Origin: an uncultured delta proteobacterium
Lineage (GTDB): Bacteria; Myxococcota_A; Polyangia; Polyangiales; Polyangiaceae
Length of the DNA stretch: 64,000 nt
Assembly: GCA_963841435.1 (NCBI GenBank)
Contig: CAWJCS010000005.1
Span: forward strand, 1,782,844-1,846,843
Reading direction: 5' to 3'
Of this stretch, positions 47,242-64,000 are shown in pieces. Made by a program: the position numbers and the translations under genes. Numbering within the stretch: the first letter of the stretch is position 1; every line of letters starts with the position of its first letter. A model generated the notes under the pieces. The model did no database searches, had not been told where the DNA came from, and was given only the letters and a program-made list of their open reading frames with translations.

Positions 47242-47325
47242 GGCCAACGTACCAACGCTAAGCTGCGCTGGTCGAGCGTAGCGAGAGCCGCGTCTGCTTC
47301 AGCCCGGAGAAACGCAAAGTTAGGC
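47242..47325 (-). repeat. attC
   Basis: GGCCAAC...GCTAAGCTGCG...CGTCTGCTTCAGC...GTTAGGC. Confidence 0.8.
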
Positions 47326-49804: not shown

Positions 49805-51059
49805 CATAAGAAGGGGGTGGCGGAAGAATCGCGACGGGTAGCTTGGGTGGCGTTCGCCAAGGGCGTGGGGGCGAGGAGGTGCGCACTGGCGCTCGCGGCG
49901 GCGTACGCGTTGTCGCTGGGGGATCCGCTCGACGCGGCGGGAGTGGAGAGAGGATCTGGGTCCCCTATCCTGGTGTCTTCCACAACCCCGAAGAAAGGAG
50001 ACCCAGATGACCCGGTATATCGGACTCGATGCCCACGCGGAAAGCTGCACGATCGCGGTGCTCGGCCCGAGCGGCAAACGGCTGCGTCACGAGCGCCTTC
50101 AGACGAGCGCGGAGCTGCTCAAGAGCTTCATCAAGGAGGTGCCCCGGCCGCGGCAGCTGTGCATGGAGGACGGCACGTTGAGCGAGTGGCTGTTCGAGGA
50201 GCTCACGCCGATCGTGGACAAGCTGGTCGTCGTGATGCCGGATCGCACGCCAGGCAACAAGAGCGACCTCATCGACGCGTGCAAGCTGGCCGACGACCTG
50301 CGGCGCAATGCGATTCGTCGCCCCGTGTACAAGGCGCCGGGTTGCTTCCGGGCGCTGCGCGAGGCGGCGCGGACGCACTACGTGCTGCAGCGCGACAAAG
50401 TCCGCACCAAGAGTCGGCTGAATGCTCTGTGCCGCGGCTGCGGCCATGCCGAGCTCGCCAAGTCGCTCTACGCGTCGAAGACCCGAGGCCAGGCGCTGAA
50501 GCAGCTGCCCGAGCATCTGCGCCCGCGAGCAGCGCTGTTCGGGCAGCAGCTCGACGGTCTGATCGAGTGCTCGAGCCAGGCCGACAAGACTCTGCGCGAG
50601 GAGAGCAGCCGGGTGCCGATCGTGCAGAAGCTTTCAACGGCGCCGGGGATCGGGCTCGTGCGAGCGGCGTACATCGTGGCGGTGGTGATGACGCCGCATC
50701 GGTTCCGCACGGCGCGGCAGTTCTGGAGCTACAGCGGGCTCGCGGTCGTGACGCGCTCGTCGTCGGACTGGGTCTCCGAAGGCGCGGGCAAGTGGCGGCG
50801 GAGCAAGGCCATGGCCCTCGAGGCCCAACGAAGAGGATGGTGCCCGAATTCAGCACCACAGACAGGGCTTCTTCTCGGCACCGGAGCACACGCCCAGCAC
50901 CGCCTTCGCTCTCGACTCATCGGCGACACTGACAATCAACTGCGACCCAGTCCGACCGCCGACCGGACGCGCTTCGCCAAGACCGACACCATTCCGCACG
51001 GTGCAAGACCGACCGCGGATGCGCCGCGGTCCATCTTGACACCTCACCCCTCGAAGAGG
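49805..51059 (+). mobile_element. IS110/IS1111-family element A, copy 1, inserted in attC (halves 49790-49804 and 51057-51119)
   Basis: AGG on both flanks; short subterminal IR AGGGGGTG/CACCCCT; joined flanks rebuild an attC. Confidence 0.85.
50007..50820 (+). pseudogene. IS110-family recombinase, C-terminus apparently deleted
   Basis: 'YIGLDAH', 'CMEDG', 'KSDLIDA', 'PGIG', 'SYSGL..RSSS'; family-like sequence ends near aa 270 (end approximate). Confidence 0.8.
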
Positions 51060-52622: not shown

Positions 52623-53219
52623 ATGCGAAATCGAATCATCGAAAAGCGTCCTCCGACCACCAGCGCAGACTTTGACGGCCAGTACCGCGCTCTCTTCACA
52701 TTCTGGGGAGACATCCGCATGCCACCTGAGGTGGCTGACCTTGCACGAGGCAAGCCCGCCCAGCGCATCCTCGAACTCGGCTGCGGCGTGGGTCGGTTTT
52801 CTCTCAACCTCGCGCGCGCCGGGCATCAAGTCGTCGGTGTCGACTTCTCTCCGGTGGCCATCGAGAAAGCCCGTGGGCGCGCAGCTGGTGACGCAGCTAG
52901 ACCGGAATTCGTGGTGGGTGACGTGACCGACCTACACAACGTCGAGGGGCCCTTCGACTTGTCGTTTGACGTCGGCTGCTACCACTGCCTGAATGCCGAA
53001 CAACAAACGCGCTACGCAGCGGAGGTGTACCGGCTGTTGGCCCCAGGAGGGACGCACCTGATTTGGGTGATGGACGACTCTCCAAGCGGTCTTCCGCTCG
53101 CGGCATCTGACATCCAGAGCGTGTTCGCCCCTCACTTCGTGCTGCGGAAGGAGATCTTCAAGCGGCGGCGCCTAGTGCGCTCGCACTGGTACTGGCTGGA
53201 GCGACGAGCGCAATCGTAG
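52623..53219 (+). CDS. Class I SAM methyltransferase
   Basis: 'LELGCGVG', 'FDVGCYH'. Confidence 0.85.
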   Translation: MRNRIIEKRPPTTSADFDGQYRALFTFWGDIRMPPEVADLARGKPAQRILELGCGVGRFSLNLARAGHQVVGVDFSPVAIEKARGRAAGDAARPEFVVGDVTDLHNVEGPFDLSFDVGCYHCLNAEQQTRYAAEVYRLLAPGGTHLIWVMDDSPSGLPLAASDIQSVFAPHFVLRKEIFKRRRLVRSHWYWLERRAQS

Positions 53220-53438: not shown

Positions 53439-54167
53439 TCAGGGTGGCAACTTGAAGAGCCGCGCGAAGTAGGTGCTGCACGCTTCGTCGCGATCTCGAT
53501 GAAGCTCCCACAGAAGGTAGACGTTGCCGTCGGACGAGACGACTTCCGGCGGAACGGGTTGGACGGGGAACGAATGGAGCAGGGCGATGAGTGCAGCTCG
53601 ATCGAACGCTGCAGATCCGCTGTGGCGCCGAAGTCGCACGCGGGTGAGCGCGCCGGAGTGGCCATCGATGAGCAAGTCTGCCGCGGCCACGAGTGTCTTA
53701 TTGGAAAGGGGGTCGTCGGGCTGGGGTTCGAGGGAGTCCAGGAAGGACTTCGCGAAGACTGGATGCAGGCACGTGTGAACAGAGGCGAGGTACTGACCGA
53801 ATGCGATGTCGGTCGAGCCCTGCTGCAGAGCGGCGGCTGGGAAAAGCGGGGCGTCCGATGCGGCAACTCTTGCATCAGCCGTCGGGTCAGCGGTCCAATC
53901 GGGCGGTCCATCGGGGTCGCTTCCGCACACTACCCCGGACGAGTCCACTGGCGGCTGGGGGGTCACGAGCGGGGAGGCACCCGCGGAATCGGCCGAGGCT
54001 GGCGTCGTCCCAGCGCCAGCACTGGCCACCCCGGTTGGGGCACCAGGGGTGGCGCGAGGAGCCGGGCAAGGGATCGGTGGTGAGAGACACGCCATGACCA
54101 TGACCGGGGTCACCGCCACCGTCACCCACCTAAAGGGGGCAGCGTGTACCGCCAACGTTCCACGCAC
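53439..54167 (-). CDS. TonB C-terminal-domain-like protein (cassette; start uncertain)
   Basis: 'SGSAAFDRAAL', 'SSDGNVYLLWELHR...CST'. Confidence 0.6.
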   Translation of the reverse strand: MRGTLAVHAAPFRWVTVAVTPVMVMACLSPPIPCPAPRATPGAPTGVASAGAGTTPASADSAGASPLVTPQPPVDSSGVVCGSDPDGPPDWTADPTADARVAASDAPLFPAAALQQGSTDIAFGQYLASVHTCLHPVFAKSFLDSLEPQPDDPLSNKTLVAAADLLIDGHSGALTRVRLRRHSGSAAFDRAALIALLHSFPVQPVPPEVVSSDGNVYLLWELHRDRDEACSTYFARLFKLPP

Positions 54168-54187
54168 CGACAGTCCTCGTCCGCCCA

Positions 54188-55123
54188 GTCAGTATGGAAC
54201 GACCGGCTCGAGTTCACGAGGTCGTAGGTTACGTTTCGAGCGGTAGGCAAGAAAAGGAGCCGGTCGCATGATCGCCAATCGGCCGGAGGCCGTCCGGCGC
54301 TTGCTGGGGAAGCTGGGAGATCCAGCGAAGTTGAAGGTTTGCTACGAGGCGGGTCCGACGGGCTACGCGTCCGCGCGATCGTCGACGCCCTCCAGGCGTT
54401 GCGCGGCGTGGCCAAGGTCACCGCCGTCACGCTCGCCACCGAGCTCGGGTGCTTCAGCCGCTTCGAGCGGGCAGCCCAGGTCATGAGCTACACGGGCGTG
54501 GTCCCGTCGGAGCACTCGAGTGGACCGCGGACGCGCCGCAGCGGCATCACGAAGACCGGCAACTCACACCTGCGCCGAGTGCTGGTCGAGGCGGCTTGGC
54601 ATTACCGCCACCGACCGAGGATCTGCCAGCGGCAGCACGAGCTGCAAAAGGCGCTCGATCCGAAAGTCGCAGCCATTGGCTGGCGGGCGCAGGAGCGCCT
54701 GCATCGCCGCTACTGGGCGCTCGCACAGAAGAGCAAGCCGACCGGCAAGATCGTCACCGCCATCGCTCGCGAGCTCGTCGGCTTCGTCTGGGCGATCGGC
54801 GTCGAGACCGAGCAACGCACGAAGCGCTCGAAGGCAGCATGAAACGCAAGGTGAAGTGAACGAGCCAGGGGTCGAGCCGGCAACGGTAGGAGGATCCTCG
54901 AATACGTTGTGTGGCAAGACCCACGAGCCCAGTGCGAGGCAGCTCCCGACGAATGATAACCATGAAGGCGGCCCCGGCCGATCCTCGAATATCAGCGTGA
55001 TCAACCGTCGATGAAGCCCACCTCGGCCCCTGTCCCGTTCACTTCACCCGCAGCCACACGGAGCAACGAAAGAAAAAAGTGACCTGAACCTCAGCTTCGA
55101 GCTTGCAGGGTCGTTCCATATCA
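54188..55123 (+). mobile_element. IS1111-type element B, copy 1 (internally deleted), inserted in attC core
   Basis: Perfect subterminal IR TATGGAACGACC (54193-54204)/GGTCGTTCCATA (55109-55120); CA on both flanks; IS110-type C-terminus 'VPSEHSSG..ITKTGN'. Confidence 0.9.
54850..55048 (+). ncRNA. Putative bridge/seek RNA of element B
   Basis: 13-bp closing stem GGTGAAGTGAACG/CGTTCACTTCACC; internal loop carrying TACGTTG and GCCCA that match the insertion target. Confidence 0.75.
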
Positions 55124-55193
55124 ACGTACCAGGTTTCAGCTGCGCCGGCCGAGCGCACGCGAGGTCGGCGTCTGCTGCAAACCGTTGTTGGGC
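55122..55193 (-). repeat. attC (core split by element B)
   Basis: (GCC)CAACGTACCAGGTTTCAGCTG...CTGCTGCAAACC..GTTGGGC. Confidence 0.88.
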
Positions 55194-55760: not shown

Positions 55761-55851
55761 TGAGGGAGGTTAGCCCGACTCAGCGCGAACGACAATCGGA
55801 ACACCCTACCGCCGATCGTCGGTGGGTCACATGCCAACCGTCGTCCGCCCA

Positions 55852-56904
55852 GTCAGTATGGAACGACCGGCTCGAGTTCACGAGGTCGTAGGTTACGTTT
55901 CGAGCGGTAGGCAAGAGACGCAGAGCTACACGTGAAAGGAGCCGGTCGCATGCGCAAGATTACCCGATTTGTAGGGATGGATGTACACGCGGAAACGATC
56001 GCCGTGGCGGTGACCGAGGGCCGTGACGGTGCGGCGCAGTCGCTGGGGACGATCGCCAATCGGCCGGAGGCCGTCCGGCGCTTGCTGGGGAAGCTGGGAG
56101 ATCCAGCGAAGTTGAAGGTTTGCTACGAGGCGGGTCCGACGGGCTACGCGTCCGCGCGATCGTCGACGCCCTCCAGGCGTTGCGCGGCGTGGCCAAGGTC
56201 ACCGCCGTCACGCTCGCCACCGAGCTCGGGTGCTTCAGCCGCTTCGAGCGGGCAGCCCAGGTCATGAGCTACACGGGCGTGGTCCCGTCGGAGCACTCGA
56301 GTGGACCGCGGACGCGCCGCAGCGGCATCACGAAGACCGGCAACTCACACCTGCGCCGAGTGCTGGTCGAGGCGGCTTGGCATTACCGCCACCGACCGAG
56401 GATCTGCCAGCGGCAGCACGAGCTGCAAAAGGCGCTCGATCCGAAAGTCGCAGCCATTGGCTGGCGGGCGCAGGAGCGCCTGCATCGCCGCTACTGGGCG
56501 CTCGCACAGAAGAGCAAGCCGACCGGCAAGATCGTCACCGCCATCGCTCGCGAGCTCGTCGGCTTCGTCTGGGCGATCGGCGTCGAGACCGAGCAACGCA
56601 CGAAGCGCTCGAAGGCAGCATGAAACGCAAGGTGAAGTGAACGAGCCAGGGGTCGAGCCGGCAACGGTAGGAGGATCCTCGAATACGTTGTGTGGCAAGA
56701 CCCACGAGCCCAGTGCGAGGCAGCTCCCGACGAATGATAACCATGAAGGCGGCCCCGGCCGATCCTCGAATATCAGCGTGATCAACCGTCGATGAAGCCC
56801 ACCTCGGCCCTTGTCCCGTTCACTTCACCCGCAGCCACACGGAGCAACGAAAGAAAAAAGTGACCTGAACCTCAGCTTCGAGCTTGCAGGGTCGTTCCAT
56901 ATCA
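55852..56904 (+). mobile_element. IS1111-type element B, copy 2 (internally deleted)
   Basis: Near-identical to copy 1; keeps N-terminus 'FVGMDVH..CYEAGPTG'; same central deletion. Confidence 0.9.
56631..56829 (+). ncRNA. Putative bridge/seek RNA of element B, copy 2
   Basis: Same as 54850-55048 with one C/T difference. Confidence 0.75.
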
Positions 56905-56952
56905 GCGAACCGGCGACCGACGAAGCCCGTCTGCTGCAACGCGGAGTTAGGC
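56905..56952 (-). repeat. attC half-site
   Basis: GCGAACCGGCGACCGACGAAGCCCGTCTGCTGCAAC..GTTAGGC. Confidence 0.8.
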
Positions 56953-57201
56953 GGCAACCATGCCGCGTGCTCACCTCGTCGTGACAGCCACCTACCGTCT
57001 ACCCAGTGTCTTTCTAACAGTGACGGCCTCACCAGAGAACGGCGTGACTTTCGCGCGCGAGAAGGCACGGAGCAGACAGTGGGCGAGCGCTTCGTCCTCC
57101 CCACCCTGGTCGAGGCCGGCAATACGCGCCTCACGCAGACATCCCGCTGGGCCGAAGGTTAGAACCACGCTGGCGGCGCGCTCGCCCCAGCCGCAGCTGA
57201 G

Positions 57202-58497
57202 CTGAGAGATCCCCTCATCCCCTCACGGAAAAGTTGAGGGTCTAGGAATTTGTGGTGGGGGCGTTGGGTTGAAGGGGCATGCAGGAACAAGGTCAGCCGC
57301 TTTCCCAGCCTCAAGCCGCGCACCGCTTGCGTCGGCAGCCGCCTCGTCCGACGCTTTCGCCTCGATACGTGCATCAGTTTGTCGAACGACTCATAGGAGA
57401 CGATTTTCACGCGAAGCGCGTGCTTTCCCTCGCTAACGGCGTGGTGGGTACCATCCACGCCGCCGCGTTGGCGGTTCACTTTATCGGGGAGGGTTTGGCG
57501 CTTGCGGAGGGACTCGACCCAAAGCACGCGATCAAACAGGTTGACCGTTTGCTCAGCAATCCGGCGATTTCCGTTGAGAGGTTCTTCGCCCGATGGGTGC
57601 CGTTCGTCGTTGCCGAGCGGAAAGGCTCCGGGTAGCGCTGGATGGACGAGTTCGATCGCGATGGGCAGATCACCATCGCGCTCTACCTGCTGACGAGGCA
57701 CGGGCGGGCCACCCCGTTGCTCTGGAGGACCGTCAGGAAGAGCGACCTGAAGGAGCGACAGGGGGAATACGAAGATGCTATCGTTGAACAGCTTCACAGT
57801 CTTCTCGGCGCCGATGTGCGAGTGACGCTGCTGGCCGATCGAGGCTTTGGCGACCAGGCGCGGTACGAGCATCTCGACCGGCTCGGCTTCAGCTTCGTCA
57901 TTCGTTTTCGCGAGAACATCCTGGTTGAGAGCGCCGACGGCGATTCGAAGACCGCCGCAGAATGGGTTCCGAGCAACGGCCGGCCCAAGCACCTGCGAAA
58001 AGCCAGAGTGACTGCTGACCGCGCCAACGTGGGCGCCGTCGTGTGCGTGAAATCGGCCGGAATGGCTCAGGCCTGGTGCCTCGCCACCAACCGTACCGAC
58101 CTTTCGGCGACCGAGGTCGTCGAGTTGTACGGCCGCCGCTTCACGATCGAGGAGACGTTCCGCGACCAGAAAGATCTGCGCTTTGGCATGGGGCTGTCGA
58201 GCACGCACATCAAGGACCCGGCACGGCGCGATCGCCTGCTCATGCTCGCAGCCTTTGCACAGGGGCTCCTCACGCTGCTCGGCGCTGCGAGCGAAGCGTC
58301 CGGACTCGATCGCTACTTGAAGGCCAATACTGTCAAAAAGCGCACTCACTCCCTGTTTCGTCAGGGTAGCTATTACTATGCCGCGCTCCCCAACATGCGC
58401 GATGATCGCCTGTTGCCGCTCATGGACGCCTCGGCAAGATCGTCGCCGAGCCAGGTCTCGCGCGAACTTCTCGGTGTCATATGAGGGGATGCCTCAG
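57202..58497 (+). mobile_element. IS4-family-like DDE element, transposase disrupted (57279-57635 and 57642-58484)
   Basis: TIR CTGAGAGATCCCCTCAT vs rc CTGAGGCATCCCCTCAT (15/17); 'LLADRGF', 'YGRRFTIEETFRDQK'. Confidence 0.85.
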
Positions 58498-58945
58498 CTT
58501 GCTAGCAGCTCGACGATCATCGCGAAGTGTCGGCAGTCCTTGTCTGGCACGAGCCCCAAAAGCTCACCGCCGGACTGAACAACATCTTGGATGACGTTGC
58601 AGCTTTGCACATCGGTCAGTGCATGAACAAGTACCCCTTCGACGGGCACCTTTTCGGGGAAGTCGCATCGAACAAACTCGTACGCGATCTCCGGACTCGG
58701 CCGTCCGGGCATGGGAAGTCCGCGACGACCTGGGTAACGGCGCCAGCATCGAAATCCTCGCGCAAATTCGCTGACGGCTCGCCCCAGTAAAGACCCTCAA
58801 CAGGACGCGGCGCGCTGCGATGACGACGTTATGGCTCGAATATCTCGCGTGATGTCGCCGACGAGCGCCCGCTGAAGGGAAAGCAACACTGACCTAGGTA
58901 GTTCTACGGGGACAGACGAATGGCTCATCGTGATGTGACCGGTCC

Positions 58946-60459: not shown

Positions 60460-60627
60460 AGTTCAAGTCTACCAGACAGACGACAGGCTCACCAGAAACC
60501 GCTCGCCCCCCGAGCCGCGCGCTGCGCTGGGCGTTCTCGCTCCCATGCGCGGGTGGGAGCGTCAGACAGGGCCAACGCAGGGTGTTGGGCCCCCGTCCGC
60601 CACCATGGGCGCACCCGAGTCTGGCTA

Positions 60628-61635
60628 CAGCCCCTTTCCATGATTCATGACACGTGATACGCGGTCTTCATGGCCGCGATCTCGTTGGACTTGCGCAAGC
60701 GGATCTTGGACGCGCTGTCAGAAGACAGTTCGTCATTGCGGGTGGGACGGAGGTTCGCGGTGAGCGCGAGCTTCGTTCGGAAGCTTCGGATCCAGGTTCG
60801 GGAAACGGGGGATCCGGCACCGGGAAAGGCCCCGGGCAAGGAGCGCTTGGTGAAGGGGGCGACGGAGCGACGGCTACGAAAGCTCGCTGCGAAGCGGCCG
60901 GACGCTTCCCTCGTGGAGCTGTCGGAGTTGCTGGCGAAGCAGACCGCCGTCGCGGTCAGCGAGACGACGATGTGGCGGAGCCTGCGCCGGCTCGGCCTGA
61001 CTCGAAAAAAAAGTCCCTCCAGGCCTCGGAGCGCGAGCGGCCGGACGTAGTCTGCGCCCGGGAGGTATTCTGCAAGCGTCGGCAGCGCTGGCGCAAGAGA
61101 CGCCTTTGGTTCGTGGACGAGAGTGGGGTCAACCTCGCGCTCACGCGGGCAAACGGTTGGGCTCCGCGCGGCGAGCGGCTCGTTGACCACGTTCCGGGCA
61201 GGCGCTGGGAGAACTTCTCGCTGATCGCCGCGCTGTCGCTCGACGGCGTGCATGCACCGTTGTTGCTGCCCGGCGCGATGAACACCGAGGCGATGCGCGT
61301 CTGGGCTCGGGAGTTCCTTGTCCCGCTCCTGAAGCCGGGAGACATCGTCATCTGGGACAACCTGGGCATTCACACCGACTTCGAGGTGCGCCTCGCTGTC
61401 GAGTGCACCGGCGCGCGGCTCGAGTTCCTGCCACCCTACTCTCCCGACCTCAACCCGATCGAACTGGCCTGGTCGAAGGCGAAAGCGCTCCTGCGTCGCC
61501 TTGGTGCCCGCACGTGGCGACGACTGGTCTGCGCCGTCGCCGATGCGCTTCACGCGATCACGCCGGCCGACTCCGCCGGATGGTTCGGCCACTGCGGATA
61601 CCCCTCTCCGTGATCCATCTCATTGAAAACTGCTG
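60628..61635 (+). mobile_element. IS630-family element inserted in the TA of an attC core
   Basis: TA duplication at 60626-27 and 61636-37; imperfect TIR; ORF1 60670-61050 (HTH) and DDE frame to 61613 ('FVDESG', 'WDNL', 'PYSPDLNPIE') linked by A8 slippery site 61005-61012. Confidence 0.92.
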
Positions 61636-61732
61636 TAACGTACCGGCGTTCAGCTGCGGGTGCCAGAGGGAGCGGGTGAGCGCAGCGAGCCGGCGACCGA
61701 CCAAGCCCGTCTGCTGCAACGCCAAGTTAGCC
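61636..61732 (-). repeat. attC (long type; core split by IS630)
   Basis: TAACGTACCGGCGTTCAGCTG...CTGCTGCAACGCCAAGTTAGCC. Confidence 0.88.
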
Positions 61733-62384
61733 AGCCCGTGGAAGGAGGACCTTGGCGAGTTCGGTTACCACAAGGGCGGCGTAGTCCTCATCCTTGATGG
61801 AGAACTCTCCAACGCCGTCCCGCTCGTTGAGGTTCAAGAAGACCTCCCCTTCGCCATCGGCGAGGAAGAGCTTCGCGGCGGTCCAGTTCCCCGGGGGGCG
61901 TGGACGAAAAGCTGGCGCCGATCTCCGGCTCCTCGAATCTGGTTTGGTTCGTTCCCCGTATCGCAATCGAACACGTCAGCTCCTCGGCAGCCGCGGGCCG
62001 GGGAAGTGTGCCCGAGAAAGAGAGCTCTTTTCGCCCACGTGGCGTAGGAACTCCGTACAGTCGGAACCGCCGCGGCGATGCAGCGAGAGCTTGGCGAAGG
62101 AGAACAGCCCACTACCTGTTGACTGCGAAGGGTCCTGGCGTGGCTTAAACTTGCACGATGGCGCGTCGTCGGTTGTCGCGAGGTACCGACGAGAGCCGTC
62201 TGCCTCTCCCGTGACGGCAAGATGAAATTGCGTTGGCGCGAGTCGGTGCTCCGAAGTTCGACTTGGGTACGGCAGCGGCCTCGGGCGACGACGCAACGGC
62301 ACCGGTCGTGGCCGGTCCTCGCGGAACGCGCGAGCAGGCGACCAAGATGGTCAAACAGACACCCAACCGAACTCGAGACAGCAT
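61727..62384 (-). pseudogene. Cassette lipoprotein, frameshifted
   Basis: N-terminal MLSRVRLGVCLTILVAC lipobox; C-terminus in another frame ending with TAA in attC. Confidence 0.5.
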
Positions 62385-62396
62385 GTCCCTCTGCCT

Positions 62397-62471
62397 GGCT
62401 AACGTACCAGGTTTCAGCAGCGCCGCCCGAGCGAACGCGAGGGCGGCGTCTGCTGCAAACCGGAGTTGGAC
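62397..62471 (-). repeat. attC
   Basis: GGCTAAC...GTTGGAC. Confidence 0.9.
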
Positions 62472-63246: not shown

Positions 63247-64000
63247 CATAAGAAGGGGGTGGCGGAAGAATCGCGACGGGTAGCTTGGGTGGCGTTCGCC
63301 AAGGGCGTGGGGGCGAGGAGGTGCGCACTGGCGCTCGCGGCGGCGTACGCGTTGTCGCTGGGGGATCTGCTCGACGCGGCGGGAGCGGAGAGAGGATCTG
63401 GGTCCCCTATCCTGGTGTCTTCCACAACCCCAAGAAAGGAGACCCAGATGACCCGGTATATCGGACTCGATGCCCACGCGGAAAGCTGCACGATCGCGGT
63501 GCTCGGCCCGAGCGGCAAACGGCTGCGTCACGAGCGCCTTCAGACGAGCGCGGAGCTGCTCAAGAGCTTCATCAAGGAGGTGCCCCGGCCGCGGCAGCTG
63601 TGCATGGAGGACGGCACGTTGAGCGAGTGGCTGTTCGAGGAGCTCACGCCGATCGTGGACAAGCTGGTCGTCGTGATGCCGGATCGCACGCCAGGCAACA
63701 AGAGCGACCTCATCGACGCGTGCAAGCTGGCCGACGACCTGCGGCGCAATGCGATTCGTCGCCCCGTGTACAAGGCGCCGGGTTGCTTCCGGGCGCTGCG
63801 CGAGGCGGCGCGGACACACTACGTGCTGCAGCGCGACAAGGTCCGCACCAAGAGTCGGCTGAATGCTCTGTGCCGCGGCTGCGGCCATGCCGAGCCCGCC
63901 AAGTCGCTCTACGCGTCGAAGACCCGAGGCCAGGCGCTGAAGCAGCTGCCCGAGCATCTGCGCCCGCGAGCAGCGCTGTTCGGGCAGCAGCTCGACGGTC
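63247..64000 (+). mobile_element. IS110/IS1111-family element A, copy 2 (runs off window); recombinase from 63448; preceded by attC half 63232-63246
   Basis: Near-identical to 49805 onward; flank GCCCAACGTATCAGG. Confidence 0.9.

Follow-up and report, generated by a model that had tools for sequence, protein, structure and literature searches.

The right part of a 64,000-nucleotide stretch of DNA from an uncultured delta proteobacterium of the Polyangiaceae (assembly GCA_963841435.1, contig CAWJCS010000005.1; the whole stretch is referred to here as the window) is an integron cassette array, with 11 attC-like sites on the plus strand between 47292 and 62448 whose hairpins fold strongly. An attC of this array is interrupted by element B, a defective insertion sequence (IS) of the IS1111 type, and a nearly identical copy, element A, lies 1.7 kb to its right (Table 1). 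The subject of this work is the region downstream of the transposase remnant of element B, which probably comprises the gene of a seekRNA aimed at the attC in which the element sits; a seekRNA is to IS1111-type elements what the bridge RNA is to IS621.

Element B begins with the junction dinucleotide AG (54187-88) and ends in ..CCATATC. Its left side (54177-54193) reads ..TCGTCCGCCC-AG|TCAGT.. and its right side (55116-55130) reads ..CCATATC|AACGTACC, with the flank continuing as AACGTACCAGG; read in this way, the flanks rebuild the target site GCCCAACGTA. The 11 bases common to the left flanks of elements A and B (TCGTCCGCCCA) lie outside the element, and the TCGTCCG(G/C)C context is also found ahead of the intact left boxes at 47292 and 59838. 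The subterminal inverted repeats are set in 7 bases from the left end and 3 bases from the right end of the element. The non-coding region (NCR) 3′ of the transposase gene (tnp) measures 280 nt, from the stop codon of the remnant (54842) to the right end (55122), and the target-binding arm of the predicted RNA begins 54 nt 3′ of that stop codon. By its inverted repeats, its 280-nt 3′ NCR and the order in which the guide matches occur, the element belongs to the IS1111 group in the definition of Siddiquee et al.

A protein encoded at window 56153-56623, identical in element B, matches PF02371 (Transposase_20, E 2e-21) and NF033542 ('IS110 family RNA-guided transposase', E 5.8e-29). The full-length relative L006, a 1707-bp element, encodes a 377-residue protein (P0003) with both Pfam domains (PF01548 E 1.1e-18), which in PDB matches the ISCro4 recombinase (E 9.5e-12) and the IS621 recombinase (E 9e-10). 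The window elements match residues 4-66 and 218-371 of P0003; a deletion shared by both has removed most of the DEDD domain (approximately residues 67-217), element A keeping 66 N-terminal residues and element B, which carries two further deletions of 18 and 99 bp relative to A, keeping fewer. As neither retains an intact N-terminal DEDD (RuvC-like) catalytic domain, the window copies are filed as deletion derivatives and not as functional IS110/IS1111 members.

Table 1. Features of element B, its flanks and its neighboring copy (window positions).
Feature	Position	Strand	Basis or remark
Left flank of element B	54177..54186	+	attC-adjacent TCGTCC (conserved) and GCCC, the outer half of the split box (GCCC|AAC), very probably R′
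Element B, defective IS1111-type insertion sequence, 936 bp	54187..55122	+	alignment with element A; register from 30 of 80 homologous loci
Left subterminal inverted repeat ATGGAACGACC	54194..54204	+	reverse complement of 55109-55119
Transposase remnant: short N-terminal piece and C-terminal Transposase_20 domain	54268..54842	+
Predicted long seekRNA, whole	54858..55041	+	folds; closed by a long stem (~54858-54877 with 55022-55041)
Predicted target-binding arm: stem CCTCG/CGAGG, 10x10 internal loop, hairpin 54911-54924	54896..54939	+
Putative 5′ guide AATACGTTGT	54901..54910	+	reverse complement ACAACGTATT; would pair with right-flank top strand, C-AA-CGTA
Putative 3′ guide GAGCCCAGTG	54925..54934	+	same as left junction GCCC-AG-T; would pair with bottom strand
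Second arm, probable donor-binding loop	54947..55010	+	stem, loop and hairpin plan like the first arm
Right subterminal inverted repeat GGTCGTTCCAT (55109-55119) and terminal ATC	55109..55122	+
Rest of interrupted attC: AAC of R′ (very probable assignment), spacer GTA, body, R″	55123..55193	+	sister-site hairpin folds
Element A, second defective copy	55851..56903	+	identical target loop at 56677-56720; left flank GCCC-AG

The predicted target arm and its match to the insertion site

The preliminary description of this locus, made from the letters alone, had placed a stem and internal loop at 54896-54939. Its bases are exact one for one: the stem strands CCTCG (54896-54900) and CGAGG (54935-54939) enclose the two loop strands and the hairpin GTGGCAAGACCCAC (54911-54924), and both proposed matches lie where they had been reported, TACGTTG (54903-54909) being complementary to CAACGTA of the right flank and GCCCA (54927-54931) equal to the other arm of the site. 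Within the loop, the top-strand match (54901-54910) stands 5′ of the bottom-strand match (54925-54934) and the two overlap at the insertion point, which is the order reported for IS1111-type seekRNAs (Siddiquee et al. 2024, PMC11187229).

In the mechanism proposed here, this first arm would present two 10-nt single strands. The 5′ strand would pair with (C)AACGTA, the target top strand on the right of the insertion point; the 3′ strand reads as the top strand does on the left, GCCCAG, and would pair with the bottom strand. Together the two strands would specify GCCC^AACGTA, made up of the R′ box (on the cassette strand GTT^GGGC) and the unpaired attC spacer beside it; the spacer bases GTA would tell R′ from the near-palindromic R″ side, where the sequence is AACTCC. 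The second arm, with matches to the element's own ends, would hold the donor.

Minimum-energy folds of three spans (282, 189 and 71 nt) were compared with shuffles. All three contain the stem, the 10x10 loop and the hairpin within a longer enclosing stem, as the preliminary description had it, with z-scores of -3.15, -1.59 and -0.34, respectively, the last being that of the arm alone. Thermodynamic significance is thus weak, and the case for the structure rests on comparison instead. RNAalifold on 21 sequences recovered the stem, internal loop and hairpin (25 pairs, 5 of them compensatory), and on the 12 sequences of the attC-seeking clade, the relatives found in attC-like sites and described below, it gave 50 pairs, 6 with compensatory changes on both sides. 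Within this clade 96.8% of 598 cells pair, against at most 40.5% with the partners slid, and the covariation score of 0.096 compares with 0.044 ± 0.006 in shuffles, none of 500 reaching it. The closing helix shows changes on both sides at 5 of its 17 pairs across 12 relatives, and the hairpin pair 54913/54922 is U-A in six and C-G in six of the 12 sequences.

A scan with the C-terminal domain, one genome per species, returned 80 loci, the RNA scaffold being recognized by pattern search in 30. The closest loci are in metagenome-assembled genomes (MAGs) of Polyangiaceae, at 73-80% identity; the rest stand at 45-61%. The stems CCTCG/CGAGG and GGAG/CTCC are nearly invariant (mean column identity 0.94-0.99), and the loop strands are the most variable part of the scaffold (0.64 for the 5′ guide, 0.74 for the 3′ guide). 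In every recognized locus the reverse complement of the 5′ strand reads into the element's own right flank in one fixed register; at L064, for example, guide and flank both read AGGTCAGA, and at L009 both read AGAAAGCA. Covariation of guide with flank among homologues, named at the outset as a check, was measured by shuffle tests on 23 loci per side with 20000 shuffled flank assignments, excluding the window copies, a mis-assigned L016 row (right-flank test) and a duplicate L016 row (left-flank test). Covariation is strong on the right, where the 5′ strand matches the flank at 101 of 136 positions (shuffles 42.8 ± 6.3; 0 of 20000 reach it), and weaker on the left, where the 3′ strand matches at 60 of 92 (shuffles 47.0 ± 3.3; 7 of 20000 reach it); since many of the loci are kin, some with shared guides, both tests overstate independence.

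These data bear on the possibility that the complementarity is coincidental and the hairpin only a terminator or a structural part of the IS end. Such an explanation would suit an arm that by itself folds no better than shuffles, in a genome of 69% G+C where stems are frequent. It is made highly improbable by the flank covariation over 23 loci, by the matched C/T guide variants described below, by the position of the most variable columns between invariant stems and by the same register in every relative.

The second arm is a probable donor-binding loop of the bridge-RNA type, judging by its sequence. On its 3′ side ATATCAG (54989-54995), the right IS end plus AG, is kept in 20 of 21 aligned sequences, the exception being L009 with ATAGCAG. 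Its 5′ side reads TGATAACC in the window (54954-54961) and TGATGACC or similar in relatives. TGAC complements GTCA, which is made up of the G from the junction AG and three bases from the start of the left end, and this side of the arm tracks the left end among relatives (GGTC with ACCAT, CGTC with ACGAT in L034, TGAC with TCA..), except in L047. Both window copies have A at 54958, where 11 of 11 relatives in alignment A3 have G, so that the TGAC complementing the left end is broken in them. RNAalifold pairs part of this region internally. Further downstream, GCCCAC at 55017-55022 is kept even in elements aimed at GCCT sites, and is therefore scaffold rather than guide. One DNA contig (run X3, depth approximately 2) links 55117 back to 54989 with 6 letters in common (ATATCA), joining the right IS end to the copy of the motif in the putative donor loop 129 bp upstream; either a tandem duplication or a small circle could account for it.

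Insertion points and guides of related elements

Matches to the NCR turned up in 8 of 41 genomes, one of these being the window's own; six came from 24 genomes of the same genus and one from 16 others. A pattern scan of metagenome contigs returned 120 stretches, 8 of them with the scaffold and the rest chance hits of a 16-mer. Other copies at unrelated sites would have told against the initial proposal, and the map of these copies shows a common site instead: 11 of the 12 elements with a known right flank occupy the fixed position RYYY^AAC of attC-like sites, the twelfth being the aberrant element A. The right flank is AACGTA in ten (B, L006, L097, L098, L104, L130, L144, L150, L157 and L197), AACGAA in L101 and AGCGAA in element A. 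Six of the ten known left flanks read GCCC-AG (A, B, L104, L123, L130 and L197), with GCCT-AG in L144 and L150, GGCT-AG in L006 and GCCG-AG in L097. The sequences downstream belong to several of the attC types of the window, including CAGGTTTCAGCTGCGCC, CGGCGTTCAGCTGCGGG and GCAGG..CTAAGC. One member, L104 (G018:C288, ~1262-1500), is a miniature derivative of approximately 240 bp that comprises both ends only and is inserted in an attC-like site at GCCC|AACGTAT.

The guides vary at one position per strand, and the variants mostly follow the site. This was assessed in eight distinct elements with both guide and left flank known, counting A and B as one. G/C guides (5′/3′) are found in GCCC sites, in the window, L130 and L197, and A/T guides in GCCT sites, in L144 and L150, where the 3′ guide reads GCCTAG.

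At the junctions, the dinucleotide CA had been put forward as the core on both flanks; it is not conserved. The left C is a base of the target, replaced by T in L006, L144 and L150 and by G in L097, and the right C closes the IS end ATATC and does not vary. Within the attC-seeking clade the left junction is AG in 10 of 10 known left flanks and the right junction AA in 11 of 12, the exception again being element A, with AG; distant relatives have AG on both sides (..CTAG|ACCAT.., ..ATATC|AG..). Of the two guides, the 5′ one encodes AA, the 3′ one AG. Judged from sequence, in which cut positions are unreadable, we infer that a G in the RNA could form a wobble pair with the T facing the second A.

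The right junction of element A reads ATATC-AG-CGAACC (window 56897-56950) and lies 47 bp inside a long-type attC. Intact sites matching it read GCGC-AG-CGAA, which resembles the target GCCC-AA-CGTA. The junction looks like the product of an adjacent deletion, or of recombination of the right end with a pseudo-site.

We consider, with a probability of about 0.82, that 54858-55041 is a seekRNA gene targeting GCCC^AACGTA in attC. Sequence matches, a conserved scaffold, covariation of loop with flank and a common insertion point in other copies are all present; by analogy with ISEc11, ISKpn4 and IS621, we infer that the RNA would be made, bound by the recombinase and able to direct strand exchange.

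Several observations weigh against this conclusion, beside the kinship among the loci of the shuffle tests and the weak separation of the arm alone from shuffled sequence. Searching the genome for an intact recombinase found none: the five P0003 matches all fall in three defective copies, the best covering residues 185-371 of 377 and none covering residues 67-184, and a full-length copy of element B was likewise not found in the genome. The third copy (C5:928374-929025) breaks off within the hairpin of the target arm and continues into the right half of another attC; it sits in a second, small attC cluster outside the window (C5:928374-930000). All three genomic copies being without the DEDD catalytic domain, the guide system is a relic here, and with no intact recombinase the guide cannot act in this genome unless a copy is hidden in an unassembled gap (the genome is 95% complete, and the cassette array is broken between contigs C5 and C1). 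Expression is not evidenced, and Rfam gives 0 matches over the whole window at the gathering score. Among assembled contigs of four public runs none spans the whole stretch, and 53900-54307 is uncovered; a 235-nt contig of the RNA-seq library X20 covers 54846-55050 at approximately 95% identity, but it is a relative's, possibly DNA carry-over, and is not counted as expression.

The left AG against the canonical right AA is likewise left unexplained by a simple shared dinucleotide core. Agreement of guide with site is also incomplete: in L006 (A/C guides, GGCT) and L123 (A/C guides, GCCC) one guide only agrees, and in L097 (G/C guides, GCCG) neither does at the variable position. Moreover, perfect target boxes stand free. 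Eight attC sites of the window are uninterrupted, as had been counted, seven with TAAC and one with GGCCAAC (one of the seven, at 61636, adjoins an IS630-like element), and the accompanying claim that free sites deviate from the guide holds for these. It fails beyond them: GCCCAACGTA occurs 9 times in the genome, and three attC left boxes of this sequence in the same array (window 63232, C1:3866 and C1:6533) are unoccupied. The free-site argument is further weakened by L006, which sits in GGCT|AAC despite a GGCC guide.

The split box and the cassette array

The end of the window is the end of contig C5. Further attC sites, oriented likewise, occupy the start of contig C1 as far as 7056. Since the two contigs both end within repeated insertion sequences, a C5-C1 join is likely, though unproven. 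The only integron integrase of the genome is encoded on the minus strand of C1 (7944-8669; 311 bits against a cut-off of 265). The intI gene thus sits to the right of the whole array and is oriented like the cassettes; its 3′ end faces the array approximately 900 bp from the last attC (C1:6533-8669), which gives integrase and cassettes a common direction, the 'inverted integrase' layout.

In the interrupted attC, the IntI crossover AA^C falls between 55124 and 55125, and GTTGGGC (55187-55193), its second box, complements GCCCAAC exactly. From the sequence of the array, the split left box is very probably R′. On the cassette strand the insertion point reads GTT^GGGC and the IntI cut G^TT, which on the R′ assignment are 2 bp apart; the proposal of an insertion into R′, 1-2 bp from the integrase crossover, is supported by gene strands, by a duplicated cassette, by a left-box difference and by the position of intI.

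The alternative is that the split box is R″, with cassettes on the plus strand and the element at the attC 5′ end, like the published IS1111-attC group, and in the sense orientation. A methyltransferase cassette gene on the plus strand (52623-53219), followed by an attC, agrees with this, as did three bulged bases beside the left box on the plus strand, first taken for the R″/L″ mark of class 1 attC sites. We judge the R″ assignment unlikely, because four of the five Pfam-supported cassette genes lie on the minus strand (PhyH, MarR, DUF4926 and DUF6036), as does intI, located past the array's right end. Moreover, a cassette present twice (window 61637-62404 = C1:3870-4633) is identical from the AAC of the left box, through the attC on its left and the gene region, to GGCTAACG of the next left box; its boundaries at left boxes suggest that crossovers occur there. 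The attC sites at 62397 and C1:2181 have body and right box in common and differ only in the outer left box (GGCT vs GTCC). The bulge-side argument was dropped, the hairpins being bulged on both arms and the side therefore uninformative. Cassette homologues in other genomes (L108, L110, L112, L113 and L116) gave no clean boundary at attC boxes.

With R′ as the split box, an element inserted 2 bp away from the IntI crossover should hinder the excision of the cassette beside it, and such elements may freeze parts of the array.

Further mobile elements are found in the same array. A second RNA-guided element, of the IS110 type, occupies two attC sites (window 49806-51059 and 63248-64000). The copy at 49806-51059 has a 5′ NCR of approximately 200 nt, a tnp start at 50007, and a DEDD domain with a partial Transposase_20 domain. 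These insertions lie approximately 10 bp further in than the IS1111-type insertion, with left flanks AACGTA(G/T)CAGG and right flank AGGTTTCGG, and the second copy leaves a perfect GCCCAACGTA intact beside it. A by-eye check of the 5′ NCR of element IS-X for guide matches to its own flanks found nothing convincing. An IS630-like element (window 60625-61639, DDE_3 E 1.4e-29) has the TA of the R′ box in attC 61636 as its insertion point; it has a copy at 100% over its whole length at C1:303825-304839, and most of it (window 60736-61637) recurs at C3:1410466-1411368. With the IS1111-type, IS110-type and IS630-like insertions, three unrelated mobile elements have thus entered one and the same ~15-bp part of attC in this array. 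A further insertion sequence (window 57201-58499, DDE_Tnp_1 E 4.1e-15) has 99% copies at C3:1540394 and C5:907272, and a long minus-strand open reading frame at 57159-58349 is probably its antisense shadow.

Relation to known RNA-guided and attC-seeking elements

The IS1111-attC group reportedly goes back to Tetu and Holmes in 2008, with work by Post and Hall in 2009 also cited, and the bridge-RNA mechanism of IS621 was reportedly worked out by Durrant et al. and by Hiraizumi et al. in 2024. For IS1111-type elements, one recent study reports that a long NCR 3′ of tnp is the typical arrangement, that the transposases co-purify with RNA from this downstream NCR, that the seekRNAs of ISKpn4, ISPst6 and ISPa25 target one end of attC, and that retargeting has occurred naturally between ISEc11 and ISXne4 (Siddiquee et al. 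2024). The preliminary description had left novelty open. The principle was already published and is unchanged by the present case; the lineage and the sub-site may be new. A literature search on attC-targeting IS1111 elements and seekRNAs returned no title on myxobacterial or R′-end cases, which does not prove their absence.

Like ISKpn4, ISPst6, ISPa21 and ISPa25, element B is of the IS1111 type, has an RNA predicted in its 3′ NCR with two short segments matching one attC end, the first (5′) its top strand and the second its bottom strand, and lies antisense to the cassettes. It differs from the IS1111-attC group in its soil myxobacterial host, in its closest hits, which are Polyangiaceae MAGs, in the present copies being deletion derivatives, and in a transposase that looks distant by eye. 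In a single passage of a secondary source, ISPa21 and ISPst6 are placed near the attC 5′ end, antisense to the cassettes (Leon et al. 2010, PMC3001079). Measured against that one passage, element B has the antisense orientation but not the 5′ position, being inserted at the R′ (3′) end, GTT^RRRY.

The element might nevertheless be a diverged member of the published ISPst6/ISPa21/ISKpn4 clade, neither an independent lineage nor aimed at a different sub-site, given that it has in common with that clade the attC target class, the orientation antisense to cassettes and the logic of a seekRNA in the 3′ NCR. We regard this as rather unlikely. Relatives at 45-61% identity (C-terminal domain) carry the same scaffold with other guides and lie in sites unlike attC, which fits recent retargeting inside the element's own clade. 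The ISKpn4 transposase is strongly unlike P0003 by eye (AVDLAK and MEACGTAHYW vs VGLDVH and YEAGPTGY), and ISPa21 and ISPst6 are at the other end of attC according to the passage just cited. Within the published clade, members share at least 74% transposase identity in the published matrix (Siddiquee et al. 2024). A tblastn search of a plasmid collection with P0001 and P0003 yielded no usable comparator of the ISKpn4 or ISPa21 type, the annotated region H34 not being in an integron context. Element B probably represents an independent lineage, aimed at the other end of attC.

A fuller account can be offered tentatively, since taken as a whole its odds fall a little short of even. A soil-myxobacterial IS1111 lineage, separate from the clinical IS1111-attC group, would have been naturally retargeted from ordinary chromosomal sites to R′, with its exchange dinucleotide abutting AA^C, the spacer GTA being read and the guides tracking GCCC, GCCT and GGCT boxes. 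Derivatives resembling miniature inverted-repeat transposable elements, reduced to the ends and the guide gene, would persist after deletion, and mobile elements would compete for recombination sites and disable them.

The predicted RNAs of this clade form a natural series of seekRNA variants, in which one scaffold carries guides that differ between target classes and, within attC, by C or T; such series are the type of evidence used to define guide positions for reprogramming. They also suggest that RNA-guided insertion sequences seek attC beyond Pseudomonas and clinical class 1 integrons, in large chromosomal arrays of soil bacteria as well.

Three known systems frame these elements. As with ISEc11 and ISXne4 (Siddiquee et al. 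2024), the stems are kept and the guide segments replaced when the attC-seeking clade is compared with its relatives L013, L019 and L021; unlike that pair, the present clade also shows fine tuning within one target class, with C and T guides for GCCC and GCCT boxes. Group IIC-attC introns resemble element B in being RNA-guided, attC-seeking and antisense to cassettes; they are retrohoming ribozymes with a reverse transcriptase that insert between gene and attC, and they are unrelated to the element in sequence and chemistry (Leon et al. 2010). The third system is IS621, with its bridge RNA and recombinase (family of PDB 8WT6): L006 encodes a homologous recombinase, and the predicted RNA has a target loop and a probable donor loop, each of which, as in IS621, would pair with one strand to the left of the point of exchange and with the other strand to its right. 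Unlike IS621, the RNA would be encoded downstream of the gene rather than in the 5′ NCR, the guide order is reversed, subterminal inverted repeats are present and the junctions differ, with AG on the left and AA on the right.

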